The notes beneath the pieces are model-generated. The model searched no databases. It was not told the origin of the DNA and saw only the letters and a list, made by a program, of their open reading frames with translations. This document shows, one piece after another, positions 12,908 to 56,141 of a stretch of DNA of 64,000 nt; position 1 is the first letter of the stretch, and the number at the start of each line of letters is the position of its first letter. The DNA is from Podarcis liolepis. Its lineage: Eukaryota. The stretch is from the NCBI GenBank assembly GCA_965112155.1, contig OZ218100.1, one strand, 5' to 3'. The position numbers and the translations under genes were made by a program.

Positions 12908-14320
12908 TAATAACCCCCTGCAATATCCTACTTTCTCTCTCCTTATCTGCTGTATAATTAAAAGCAACTCCAACCCTCCACCCAGCAAAGGAAATTTTCA
13001 TCTTTCCACACCACTATTGCCTGGGTTTTATTTGATCTCCCCTATTACTTGGCAAATCCCTACAGGTTTCTCTCTGTGTTAAATGGCTGATTGTTAGTAG
13101 GTGCCTATAAAGTAGTAGGTGTCTATAAAGCATCCATAGAACCCAGCCTTTTGCCTTTCTAATCCTGTCAATTAACAAGACACCACTATATGTTCCAGTT
13201 TTTTACTCTGAATTGCACATTTTGTGTTATATATATGTGTGCAGTTCAATTTAAAAATTCTTTCCACCACCATCTAGATTAGAAAGCCACTTTCATTTCC
13301 AAAACAATCAAAATTTCAATAAGAACAGTTACGAAACAAAATGGCAAATTTGGAAACCTTCAGATATACTACAAAGATTATATTATCAGGATTTGAACTT
13401 TGCAGCATGAGCTTCTCTCTAAGGTCTTCTGAAGCGGTATCATATGAATGATCATCTGTGTCACCTCTTTTACTGCAGGAGTAGAGTCTTTGGATTAATG
13501 TGCTCAATACATTTTCTTGCTACAGATACTGCTCTTCTCAGAAATGTGATCTATTGACTAGATGCCCACACATCTGATAAATCACTGTGGTCTAAATGCA
13601 GCTGTGGCTCTCCTCTTGTCTGGAAGGATACAAACTGGGAGAAAAATCTGTAAATGTATAGAAGACATAATACCCATACTCTTCTCACCTGCACCGATGA
13701 ATGGCTTTTCAATGGTGTGTGTATGTAAATTAAATTAGGTCATTTTTATCTACATGCATGCAGAGGAGATACTCCCATTTTTTATCATCATTTTCGGAAT
13801 GCTTTCTTGCCATTATAGGAGTCTTAAAGAAAGGCTAAATGCAGCATTTAACCACAGTCTCAAATATTAAATATATTTGTATCCTATGTGAGTTTTACTA
13901 ATAGCTATAGAAATCTTCACATGCACCTTTAGCTGCTTTCATACTCTGCTTCCTCTCTAGAACCTCAAAATAATATAGCATAATCTTCATCTGGATCTAT
14001 TCCCTAACAGAGAGCCAGACATGACAGATGAGCGTGGTGGGGAGTCCAACTTTTTTGAAAGTTAAAATTCAGTATAACCTTCACAATGACCCTCTTAATT
14101 ATAGATGCCAATCTGTGTAGTGTACAACATTGCAACTAGCAAGACATATTTATTAATTTATTATATTTATTCATCACTTTTGAGTGCAGGTGTTAGCATA
14201 CCATAGCAAAACAGCTTCCTCCCCATCACCTATGTGTGTGAATTCGGACCTTTCAAAACATGGTGGTAAACTCCCCAAACTTAATGACAGCAGCTGTTAA
14301 GCAAGTATAAGGAATAGATA

Positions 14321-14447
14321 GTTTGCATGCACACGAAAGCTTATACCAAGAACAAACTTGGTTGGTCTCTAAGGTGCTACTGGACAATTTGTAATTTTTT
14401 TATATCTATGTTTCAACTGCGTCAGACCAACACGGCTACCTACCTGA
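14321..14447 (+). mobile_element. Penelope-like retroelement 3' fragment with the 3' half of a hammerhead motif
   Basis: gcatgcacacGAAAGCTTatacc...ggtctctaaggtgctactgga...gtcagaccaacacggctacctacctga, shared with the copies at 36160 and 54705. 14-bp TSD ATAAGGAA(T/G)AGATA at 14307-14320 and 14448-14461. Confidence 0.78.
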
Positions 14448-36159: not shown

Positions 36160-36412
36160 TCCAGTAGCATCTTGGAGACTAACTAAGTTTGTTCTGGGTA
36201 TGAGCTTTTATGTGCATGCACACTTCTTCAGATACACAGAAACATATGTCGCCAGACCCTTATATATTCTTCTGTTTCAGTGTATCTGAAGAAGTGTACA
36301 TGTACACAAAAGCTTACACCCAGAACAAACTTAGTTGGCCTCTAAGGTGCTAATGGACATTATATATATATATTTTCAACTGCGTCAGACCAAAACAGCT
36401 GCCTACCTGAAT
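36160..36412 (+). mobile_element. Penelope-like element with inverted duplication; two degenerate hammerhead motifs
   Basis: Arms 36160-36244 and 36273-36357 are imperfect inverted repeats, each with gtatCTGAAGAag...aaagct. Ends with the family terminus gtcagacca...cctacctgaat. Possible TSD CTAAG(G/A)TCTT at 36107-36116 and 36413-36422. Confidence 0.8.
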
Positions 36413-49086: not shown

Positions 49087-50890
49087 TTATTTATATCCCG
49101 CCCTCCCCAGCTGAAGCTGGGCTCAGGGCGGCTAACAACAATAAAACAGTACAAAAGTACAGCATAAACAACACTGTAAAATCATTCATTATAAAATTAA
49201 TTAATTCAAGTCACTGGCAACCATTGGGCCAGAGCTCCGCAAAGATTGCCAAAGGAGGGAGTCAGGCTGTGCCCTGGCCAAAGGCCTGGTGGAACAGCTC
49301 TGTCTTGCAGGCCCTGCGGAAAGATGTCAAGTCCCGCAGGGCCCTGGTCTCTTGTGACAGAGTGTTCCACCAGATCGGAGCCACAGCCGAAAAAGCCCTG
49401 GCTCTAGTTGAGGCCAGCCTAACTTCTCTGTGGCCTGGGACCTTCAAGATGTTTTTATTTGAGGACCGTAAGTTTCTCTGTGGGGCATACCAGGAGAGGC
49501 GGTCCTGTAGGTACGAGGGTCCTAGGCCGTATAGGGCTTTAAAGGTTAAAACCAGCACCTTAAACCTGATCCTGTACTCCACCGGGAGCCAGTGCAGCTG
49601 GTATAGCACCGGGTGAATGTGATCTCGCAGCGAAGACCTCATAAGGAGTCTCGCTGCAGCATTCTGCACCCACTGGAGTTTCTGAGTCAGTCTCAAGGGC
49701 AGCCCCACGTAGAGCGAGTTACAATAATCCAGTCTGGAGGTGACCGTCACGTGGATCACAGTGGCTAGGTCAGGGCGAGAGAGGTAAGGAGCCAACTGCT
49801 TAGCTTGGTGGAGATGGAAAAATGCTGCCTTTGTTATAGCTGCAATCTGCGTCTCCATGGAAAGGGAGGTGTCGAAGATTACACCCAAACTCTTAACGGA
49901 CGGTGCTAGCACTAATTGCGCCCCCGCAAGAGATGGGAGTTGTCCCTCCAATCCCATATTGTCCCGTCCCAGCCACAGGATCTCTGTCTTCGAAGGATTT
50001 AGCTTCAACTGGCTCCCACGTAACCATCCAGCCACAGCTTCCAAACATCTGGCCAGTGTGTCTGGGGCCGAGTCAGGATGGCCATCCATCAACAGATAGA
50101 GTTGGGTGTCATCGGCATACTGATGGCAACCCAGCCCAAAACTCCGAACAAGCTGGGCGAGGGGGCGCATAAAGATGTTGAAAAGCATCGGGGAGAGTAT
50201 CGCACCCTGAGGTACTCCACACACCAAGGAGTGGCGCGATGACAATTCCCCCTCCAAGCACCACCCTCTGTCCCCGGCCAGAGAGAAACGAGCGCAGCCA
50301 TTGAAGGACTGTGCCCTGGATCCCCCACATCGGCAAGGCGGTGGTCCAGAAGTTCGTTATCGACCATGTCGAAAGCTGCTGACAGATCTAGAAGAATCGG
50401 CAGCCCCGACCCACCTCGATCCAGCTGTCTACGAAGATCATCTGTTAGGGCAACCAGAGCCGTCTCGGTCCCATGACCAGCGCAGAAGCTGGACTGGAAT
50501 GGATCCAGAGCCGATGTTTCATCCAGAAACCCACCAAGCTGTTCAGCAACCACTCTCTCAATCACCTTACCCAGGAACGGAAGATTCGAAACCGGGCAGT
50601 AATTGGATAGATCTAAAGGATCTAATGATGTTTTCTTTAAGAGCGGGCGCACCACTGCCTCCTTCAGTTCCCCTCGGAATGTCCCCATGCTAAGGGACAA
50701 ATTGATGATATCCCCCAGGAGGGCCTGCACCTCGTCTGGACAGGCTCTAATCAGCCAAGACGGGCACGGGTCGAGAGGACAGGTGGTGGGCTTTCCAGCT
50801 CGGAGGAGTCTGTCCACATCGGCTGGGGCTATCCGGTCGAAGTGGTCCAATACTGGACCCGAGGACAGTCGAGGGGCCTCCAGTTCCATT
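49037..50890 (-). mobile_element. Young 5'-truncated L2 LINE (~1.85 kb) with RT domain, 3' UTR and (TTA)n tail
   Basis: ORFs 50089..50919, 50109..50336 and 49262..50257 together give an RT: NYCPVSNLPFLGKVIERVV, HGTETAL, LLDLSAAFD, GVPQGAILSP, YADDTQLY, SRLDYCN. Two frameshifts, near 50324 and 50250. The 5' boundary is approximate. Confidence 0.95.
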
Positions 50891-50944
50891 TTTTGTTTTT
50901 GCAAGATGTATGCCCACAAATGGACCCCACTGAATCAGCCTTAC

Positions 50945-52536: not shown

Positions 52537-52669
52537 TCATAGAATCATAAAACTGTAGAGCTGGAAGGGACCACAAGGGACATCTAGTCCAACTCCCTGC
52601 AGTGCAGGAAACCTTTGCCCTATGGGGGATGTGAGATTAAGAGTCTCAAGCTTTACCAACTCAGCTACT
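52537..52669 (-). mobile_element. tRNA-headed SINE with CR1-type tail
   Basis: Minus strand head tagctgagttggtaaagc...gactcttaatc (tRNA-Lys-like) and tail ...ctacagttttatgattctatga. Second copy at 56294-56423. Confidence 0.7.
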
Positions 52670-53505
52670 CCACATAGATCAATATAGTTTATTTATGTAC
52701 TGCTTTTTGGCCTAATGGGTCTCCGAATCATCTTCAAGCATGATTTTGCTGTTCGTTTTGATAGGGCTCTGCACACACTTTAAATGCCATTTGCTCAACA
52801 TTGGTTGCTACAACACTTAAAAGTGTTATTATTATATTGATAATAAGTTGAGCTAAATCTCACAGGATCATGAAGAAGCACATAGGTATTTTACAGATAG
52901 GATTTACAGAAGCTTGATTCTAATGCTGTTTCCCAGAAATAGCTCACTGGGTGGAACAGAGCCATTGTGCCAGATTCCCAGCAGGTGGTTGCTGATGCCC
53001 ACCAGAAGGGAATGTGGAGGAAGCAAGGCGTCAGGGCAGTCAGCGTTGGGCAAATGCACCAGCAGTGCTAAATCCTCCTGCTGGTGCATTTGCACTACAT
53101 CAGTCTCTCTGCCACCTCTCCCCTCCTCCTCCAGTGAAATCCACCTATTGGGAAGCTAGCCGAGTGGCATTAACCCAGGCAGCAAGCCACTTCTGTTGTT
53201 ATATTCCCTCATTAGCTGGAACCCCAACTAATAGAAATCTTATACATCTACATTTAACTATAAGCTACTCGTCTGTGAATGTTGAGAAACATTAAATTAA
53301 AGTATTTAAATTAACAAGAAAACAAGATTAATTCACTGCTTCAAAGGTGTCATTTCCCCACTTTTTAACAATTTGTAAGAGGAAAAACTAGAGGAGGAGG
53401 GTGGAGGGAGGACACCAATGGCTGGATGATGGAAAAAGCAGTCAGACTATATTGAGCCTGTCTTGAAAAAGACAGAGAAAAATGTGACTCTTAATCATTA
53501 CTTAC

Positions 53506-53587
53506 CACAAGGGTAACTCAGAACCTGGATGTCATCAATGGCAATGTAGCCATTTCTTCCATCTGAGACTTCGGCCTCAAATATTAC
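53506..53587 (-). CDS. PTPRK: PTPRK coding exon (82 nt, probably exon 4), C-terminal end of MAM domain
   Basis: Not in the ORF track; read by hand on the minus strand. Acceptor ttttctttctctttgacag|GTA ATA TTT; translation [27 protein letters not shown]+G; donor G|gtaagt. Matches the recalled PTPRK MAM C-terminus (GYIAIDDI motif). Its phase-1 end joins the next exon to give the Asp codon G|AT. Confidence 0.97.
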
Positions 53588-54403: not shown

Positions 54404-54436
54404 TGTGTGTGTGTGTGTGTGTGCGCGCGCGCGCGC
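54404..54436. repeat. (TG)n(CG)n alternating purine-pyrimidine tract
   Basis: tgtgtgtgtgtgtgtgtgtgcgcgcgcgcgc; potential Z-DNA. Confidence 0.85.
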
Positions 54437-54704
54437 CAAAAACAAAACAAAGTAGAACAGCATATCATCTTAACTGTGTAGTTCTGCCTTTGGGCATAGG
54501 GGTGTTGCTTTATTCTTTTCTAATTGCCAGTGAAGGCTTTTTTAAACCCTTACTCACCCACCATTTCACTGTGGTCTTGATACTCATGCAACCTTCATGC
54601 AAAAAGGGCCAGTTTAATTAAATGCAACATTTCCCCTCAGTACAAACTGCAGGAGGGTGATCCAGATTAGTGACTCCATGCTGACAATTATGAGAGGGGG
54701 AACT

Positions 54705-54901
54705 AAAAAAATTCCTTCCAGTAGCACCTTAAAGACCAACTAAGTTAGTTCTTGGTATGAGCTTTCGTGTGCATGCACACTTCTTCAGATACACATGAAA
54801 GCTCATACCAAGAACTAACTTAGTTGGTCTTTAAGGTGCTACTGGAAGGAATTTTTTTATTTTGACTATGGCAGACCAACACGGCTACCTACCTGTAACT
54901 G
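54705..54901 (+). mobile_element. Young Penelope-like insertion with perfect 62-bp inverted arms
   Basis: 54705-54766 is the exact reverse complement of 54797-54858. Perfect 14-bp TSD TGAGAGGGGGAACT at 54691-54704 and 54902-54915. Family terminus cagaccaacacggctacctacctg. Confidence 0.88.
54755..54792 (-). ncRNA. Minimal type I hammerhead ribozyme motif (Penelope-associated, dimer type)
   Basis: Minus strand reads GUAU-CUGAAGA-A-GUGUG CAUG CACAC-GAA-A GC U-C/AUAC: stem I GUAU/AUAC, CUGANGA and GAAA core boxes, stem II, and a palindromic AGCU in place of stem III. Confidence 0.72.
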
Positions 54902-55101
54902 TGAGAGGGGGAACTGACACTGAGTTCCCCCCATTCCACTCACAGAGCTAAAATTCCCAGAGTCCCCTGGACAGAGGAATTGATTGCTAAGCCACTCTGA
55001 GAGTTGTACCTCTGTGAAAGGAACAGAGGTCTCATAATATCTCTCAGGACCTTTAAAAACTATAGTTCCTAGAAATCTTTGGGGAACCCATAAGAGTTAA
55101 G

Positions 55102-55563: not shown

Positions 55564-56075
55564 TTTAATGCAATTAAGCCCTGGAACAATGCTAGCCATG
55601 CCCCCTTGCTTGCTTGCAGATGCTTTGCAAGAAGGGGAGAGCCCAGCTTGTTCAAATACCCATGTCTACAGTGCAATGCAATATTGATTCAGAAACACAG
55701 ACCCCACAGCAGCCATCACTGGAGGAAACTGTTCTAAAATTAGGGGGGGGGGGAATATGCAAAAATATTTGGAAGGAAACTGGAGTGAGGGAACCACTCC
55801 CCCCCCAAAAAAAAAAAAATTGACAAAAGGCTCAAGAAAGTGGAGTCTAGATTTAGGCTGAGTGCACACCATACATTTAAAGCACCTAGAAAGAGCAGCA
55901 CCCAGGAAGCTGTAGTTTGTTAAGGGTACTGGGAGTTAAAGCTCTTTTGGGACAAGCTACAGCTTGGAGTGTGTGTGCTTTAAAATATGTATACAGACTT
56001 AGATAGTTTTAATAGGGAATATAACAGTTTTATAGAGGACAGAGATCTACCAACAGTCCAAAACATTCATAATCA

Positions 56076-56141
56076 GGTATCTGAAGAAGCATGCATGCAC
56101 ACCAAAGCTCATACCATAACAAATTTAGTTGGTCTCTAAGG
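56076..56141 (+). mobile_element. Penelope-like fragment with degenerate hammerhead motif
   Basis: GGTAT CTGAAGA A gcatgcatgcacac CAAA GCTC ATACC...ttagttggtctctaagg; the GAAA box is mutated to CAAA. Confidence 0.72.

Follow-up and report, generated by a model that had tools for sequence, protein, structure and literature searches.

Minimal type I hammerhead ribozymes have been described in the pLTRs of metazoan Penelope-like elements (PLEs), where they combine the core boxes CUGANGA and GAAA and a UH site with a short helix I, an extra base between positions 9 and 10.1, a G10.1-C11.1 pair and a palindromic 15.2-16.2 without loop 3 (Cervera and de la Pena 2014, PMC4209133). Truncated elements have left them scattered in thousands of single copies, and they were reported in turtles and snakes (PMC4209133). 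That paper reports no cleavage by a single minimal motif and little by dimers or trimers; dimer cleavage of minimal hammerheads is claimed in a review (PMC6765202). Insertions of endonuclease-positive PLEs consist of a 5'-truncated copy and an adjoining inverted copy, with a tail at one end and a target-site duplication (TSD) (Craig et al. 2021, PMC8557442). Neptune and Nematis elements carry a CX2-5CxxC linker motif, which Penelope/Poseidon elements lack according to the same source, and the groups on record from vertebrates are Neptune and Poseidon (bioRxiv 10.64898/2026.07.22.740005). The Poseidon element PAc of Anolis carolinensis has its hammerhead at the junction of pLTR and ORF; this ribozyme cleaved only with the element protein and was dispensable for insertion in vitro, and no RNA-seq reads ended at its cut site (Frangieh et al. 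2024, PMC11167929). Type I hammerheads also lie in introns of the amniote host genes RECK, CTCL and DTNB (PMC6155905).

One minimal type I hammerhead was found in the window, by which we mean the whole 64-kb stretch of DNA analysed. Reading the minus strand gives a 38-nt motif at 54792-54755, in which the 5' strand of stem I (GUAU/AUAC, 54792-54789 paired with 54758-54755) is followed by CUGAAGA, an extra A, a 5-bp stem II with a CAUG loop, GAAA, GC and UC, and the predicted cut lies after C17, between 54759 and 54758. All parts of the minimal core, together with helices I and II, are present, as are the extra base between 9 and 10.1, the G10.1-C11.1 pair and the palindromic 15.2-16.2, and the catalytic core carries no mutation. 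A sequence-only reading of this DNA had named the core boxes, both stems, the UH site and the extra A exactly as we read them. It had also placed the cut at the same bond, and its description of stem III as the palindrome AGCU, unable to close in a monomer, was upheld. Helix II is shorter here than in the minimal hammerheads of Schistosoma, where 7-8 bp are described (PMC4209133).

The motif is beyond chance: a minimal-hammerhead descriptor matched once in the 64-kb window and not at all in 200 dinucleotide shuffles. At gathering score, Rfam returned no hammerhead in the window but only a tRNA-like match. The loose core pattern alone was at chance level in the window (5 found, 5.4 expected), and the folding energy of the 38-mer was ordinary (z -0.44). 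Stem II and its loop (54767-54780) form a perfect 14-nt palindrome, for which folding predicts -25 kcal/mol as a two-copy duplex and -4 kcal/mol as a hairpin, making it a possible dimerisation handle stronger than AGCU.

The hammerhead lies in a 197-bp insertion, 54705-54901, framed by a 14-bp TSD and placed in an intron of PTPRK. The features of the locus are as follows.

54755..54792, minus strand: minimal type I hammerhead motif with predicted cut 54759/54758 (from sequence; descriptor match)
54691..54704, no strand: left TSD, 14 bp, identical to 54902-54915, one copy only in relatives
54902..54915, no strand: right TSD, 14 bp, direct repeat, empty site in relatives
54705..54794, minus strand: inverted, tail-less pLTR copy, 95 nt at 98.9% to the full-length element
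54793..54901, plus strand: main 5'-truncated pLTR copy, 106 nt at 96.2% to the full-length element
54705..54858, no strand: fold-back hairpin, arms matching at 68 of 70 positions, the outer 62 perfect
53506..53587, minus strand: PTPRK exon on the downstream side of the host intron, coding for the end of the MAM domain and matching residues 142-168 of PDB 8A1F (E 1.2e-10)

The start of the inverted copy lies 6 nt upstream of the hammerhead core, and the copy contains the whole ribozyme in sense orientation to PTPRK. The main copy begins inside stem II, so it has no ribozyme of its own; it forms the antisense arm in PTPRK pre-mRNA and ends in a tail that encodes the first codons of the element ORF. 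The earlier description of the ribozyme as intact holds for its unmutated sequence but not for its surroundings, since the motif overlaps a 74-nt, 96% inverted repeat (54701-54774 and 54789-54862) that the earlier reading missed. Fusion to its own antisense arm also sets this copy apart from the minimal hammerheads described in PMC4209133.

We compared the locus in four public assemblies. In organisms C and F, 54690 is joined to 54902 within single contigs, and a contig of organism B bridges the insertion place with slightly different edges. The site was thus empty in all three of these relatives, with just 10-17 letters in about 990 of the flanks differing from the window. Contigs of organism A end at 54704 and resume at 54902 with no bridging contig listed, which is compatible with, though not proof of, organism A carrying the insertion. 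Because contigs of the relatives join across an empty site between near-identical flanks, 54705-54901 is a recent insertion. The empty site in three of three relatives rules out a domesticated amniote hammerhead: those of RECK, CTCL and DTNB are described as conserved across species and as carrying tertiary contacts (PMC6155905), whereas the motif in the PTPRK intron is minimal, multicopy and absent in close relatives. A non-LTR retrozyme, defined as a tandem repeat with at least two consecutive hammerhead units (bioRxiv 10.64898/2026.07.22.740005), is likewise ruled out, as we found no tandem array at the locus and one intact motif.

The layout of the insertion corresponds to the Neptune/Nematis insertion unit, which has the same truncated and inverted copies, TSD and one-end tail of 30-40 bp (PMC8557442); there is no difference in kind, and 54705-54901 keeps only the last 90-110 bp. 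PAc insertions likewise end shortly downstream of the hammerhead, with the tail between the two end points (PMC11167929), but PAc belongs to a different clade, Penelope/Poseidon without the linker Zn-finger, and was compared by description. Such an insertion would arise when the element protein nicks the target site and the short pLTR end of the element RNA is copied there; a second, inverted copy would then be added, joined via 3-nt microhomology. A (TG)n(CG)n microsatellite prone to form Z-DNA (54404-54436) lies 270 bp from the insertion.

Older pLTR copies in the window that keep the whole core have lost the catalytic G12 in three of three cases.

36235-36198, minus strand: older pLTR core without G12 (G12 to A)
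36282-36319, plus strand: older pLTR core without G12 (G12 to A)
56077-56114, plus strand: older pLTR core without G12 (G12 to C)

The intactness of 54792-54755 reflects its youth, given that all of these older copies lack G12. The first two cores belong to an older inverted pair of a related pLTR (36160-36408) beside an (ATAG)n tract, in which the plus copy shows a two-sided change in stem II from G-C to A-T that keeps the palindrome. The third belongs to an old pLTR fragment at 56073-56141 (plus strand). Another old fragment, at 14320-14445 (plus strand), starts inside stem II and keeps the tail.

PTPRK is encoded on the minus strand of the window, as the sequence-only reading had proposed: in addition to the exon listed above, a second exon (51061-50945) matches residues 169-207 of 8A1F. 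The exon before these (residues 51-142) is found about 33 kb outside the window, giving a host intron of about 43.6 kb with its acceptor AG at 53589-53588. The predicted cut precedes this AG by 1,170 nt, in agreement with the earlier figure of about 1.17 kb. For the exon at 53506-53587 we assume the label exon 4 from the human gene. A frameshifted remnant of a LINE-like reverse transcriptase (49262-50934, minus strand) lies directly behind the donor of exon 51061-50945.

We next looked at the family to which the insertion belongs. A 34-nt core has 11,672 exact copies in the 1.57-Gb genome, and its reversed control has none. Longer copies extend upstream into a GIY-YIG domain, and 4 of the 20 loci fetched around long copies have an intact frame of 926 codons. 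These frames lie between two hammerheads in a repeat unit of 3,008 bp, with the same hammerhead core in both pLTRs, which bears out the assignment to the Penelope type made from the motif. The single ORF encodes a reverse transcriptase (RT) followed by GIY-YIG (RVT_1, PF00078, E 1.4e-11; PF01541, E 2.2e-5; both over cut-off), with a pair of cysteines within the GIY-YIG motif and a CX4CxxC linker upstream of it, the arrangement of RT, linker and GIY-YIG described for Neptune and Nematis (PMC8557442). By its sequence the parent is an endonuclease-positive PLE, Neptune-type by linker motif, and the hammerhead at 54705-54901 belongs to the minimal hammerheads of Penelope-like pLTRs. The insertion is one entry in a very large, young family.

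The position of the hammerhead at the pLTR-ORF junction is shared with PAc (PMC11167929). In the parent reference locus (L105, 3913-3945) the stem II loop contains an ATG in frame with the 926-codon ORF, but a TAA follows nine codons later. In about half of the family contig depth an A is read there, which leaves the frame open from within the ribozyme, similar to what is reported for the Anolis element; a young subfamily may have moved the start to the ATG in the tail. A complex cluster on contig 1 (101118000-101127900) combines five hammerheads with several long ORF copies, which lie in either orientation and encode near-identical proteins; it shows signs of very recent activity.

We then folded the hammerhead in its different contexts. 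For the 38-mer alone, the hammerhead fold was predicted to lie no more than 0.8 kcal/mol above the optimum; in the RNA context of the parent it was itself the best fold. In the insertion the predicted hairpin has -124 kcal/mol and the hammerhead fold lies 24.8 kcal/mol higher; in the nascent RNA the difference is already 16.7 kcal/mol once the 3' half of the ribozyme emerges. The predicted probability of stem I in this context is below 0.00001 and that of an unpaired AGCU about 0.001 or less, and an AGCU duplex would yield only -2.5 kcal/mol. RNA polymerase transcribing PTPRK would make the antisense arm first, and because this arm precedes the ribozyme, the 3' half of the nascent ribozyme would pair with it while emerging, leaving none of stem I, stem II and the dimer-forming AGCU free. 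Helicases or the element protein could remodel the hairpin.

We are confident that 54705-54901 is a recent, truncated Penelope-like fragment, Neptune-type by its linker, whose hammerhead is predicted to be locked in a hairpin by the adjoining inverted copy and which is for this reason likely inert for PTPRK. The published results on single minimal motifs (PMC4209133) and on PAc (PMC11167929) agree with this view, whereas the unmutated core and the near-optimal hammerhead fold of the isolated 38-mer speak against it. The insertion is ordinary, neutral-looking and likely inert, and probably of no importance for PTPRK. The suggestion of a potentially self-cleaving RNA of note for this gene is not supported in view of the 11,672 copies, the empty site in three of three relatives, the predicted trapping and the lack of a second intact copy in the window. 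The locus also teaches a caution, as a hammerhead must be folded in context.

Two effects on PTPRK were weighed against this reading. The ribozyme might cleave PTPRK pre-mRNA, if at a low rate, either as a trans dimer with another copy or with the element protein, and so lower or reshape PTPRK output. An intact core in sense orientation 1.17 kb ahead of the acceptor, thousands of identical potential partners, the existence of intact parents and the protein-assisted cleavage in vitro of the Anolis element (PMC11167929) all speak for this. We nevertheless consider it very improbable in view of the predicted lock of about 25 kcal/mol with AGCU paired and its duplex so weak, and because the descriptor found no second intact hammerhead to pair with in the 64-kb window. 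Three RNA runs of organism F, fragmented libraries of which 6-12% each was read, showed no pile of read ends at the cut on the family pLTR and are weak evidence against cleavage; positions with many read starts were confined to L105 3880 and 3731, away from the cut (3928/3929). These RNA runs also gave a sense/antisense depth gradient across the motif, which we disregarded, since much of it comes from one expressed antisense locus. Alternatively, the 62-bp perfect double strand, part of a hairpin predicted at -124 kcal/mol, might attract ADAR editing or alter nearby splicing without any cutting. Long perfect duplexes are substrates of ADAR, and editing would be likely here but without evident consequence: the hairpin is more than 1.1 kb from the acceptor, the insertion is not conserved and it is one of thousands of like hairpins, which makes such an effect on PTPRK hardly to be expected.

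The fold-back arrangement is frequent in the family. Our sample consisted of 100 copies, the first on contig 1 that matched a downstream anchor. Of these, 54 are arranged as 27 inverted pairs within 600 bp, and in 26 of the 27 pairs only one copy has the tail, as in the layout given in PMC8557442; partial tandems, inverted 5'-truncated copies, one-end tails and TSDs were all seen in the family. The core is unmutated in 67 of the 70 sampled copies that span it, and an antisense arm lies within 400 nt of 36 of these 67. A pattern for the fold-back junction gave 2,105 matches (a symmetrical junction being counted twice) with varied joins, and the commonest form, 8 of the first 100 matches listed, differs from the junction of 54705-54901 by one C-to-T at a CpG. 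That the fold-back unit is a non-autonomous, retrozyme- or SINE-like element copied whole would accord with this recurring form and with 40 scored matches that span nearly the whole 188-nt query at 94-100%, but these were chosen for their likeness, most junctions differ, the outer ends vary, the recurrence can be explained by short microhomology between the arms and there are no tandem hammerhead units as in the definition of retrozymes (bioRxiv 10.64898/2026.07.22.740005), so we give this explanation very little credence.

Of the same 100 copies, 41 start 1-11 nt upstream of the core (14 of them at -6); 29 begin further upstream and 18 within the core, 3 start at +31 to +34, 9 further down and none exactly at the cut site. 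Starts at -101 formed a class that arose from an indel in the reference copy; this artefact was counted as further upstream. Across the genome, a foreign base stands at -7 in 2,791 copies, versus 5,058 that continue to at least -11, and loose ends of contigs pile up at the same place just upstream of the core. The parent has a TATA-like box whose first base lies 30-31 nt upstream of the pile-up, and an initiator-like TCAGT covering the pile-up itself; both labels and the spacing were assigned by eye from consensus sequences. A bacterial promoter scan was irrelevant here. Drosophila Penelope differs in having a TATA-less internal promoter in its pLTR (PMC2377424). A limited literature search found no published description of a pile-up of 5' ends upstream of the core.

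An RT stalled by the structure of the ribozyme would be expected to stop on its 3' side, not after the 5' arm. The simplest reading, at which the pile-up hints, is run-off at the true 5' end of the RNA from uncleaved templates. We see an even chance that the dead copies form a record of germ-line RNA, in which transcription would start 6-7 nt upstream of the core and about 30 nt after the TATA-like box, RT would start internally about 90-120 nt further in and run off, the template would almost never be cut, and self-inversion would then silence about half of the dispersed ribozymes, leaving thousands unlocked. If this is true, the strand bias of the thousands of unlocked intronic copies would directly test cutting in vivo: locked and unlocked, sense and antisense intronic copies amount to a natural experiment on cleavage by PLE hammerheads. 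What deserves to be kept is the family-wide pattern of 5' ends, together with the strand-bias test.

An apparent abundance of copies beginning at the cut site was rejected, as 21 of 30 inspected were point variants of the whole ribozyme. Matches without the C before the cut number 737, compared with 16,213 matches to the downstream anchor, and the 30 inspected included 9 rows (7 insertions) with true ends at the cut; there may be a mild genome-wide excess of such ends. The base before copies starting at -6 is mostly T, neither the native A nor G, among the first 100 listed, and could come from a non-templated A on the cDNA end or from a GT slip. Elsewhere in the window, Rfam gave a tRNA-like match just over the cut-off (30 bits) at 52620-52674 (minus strand), probably the head of a SINE.
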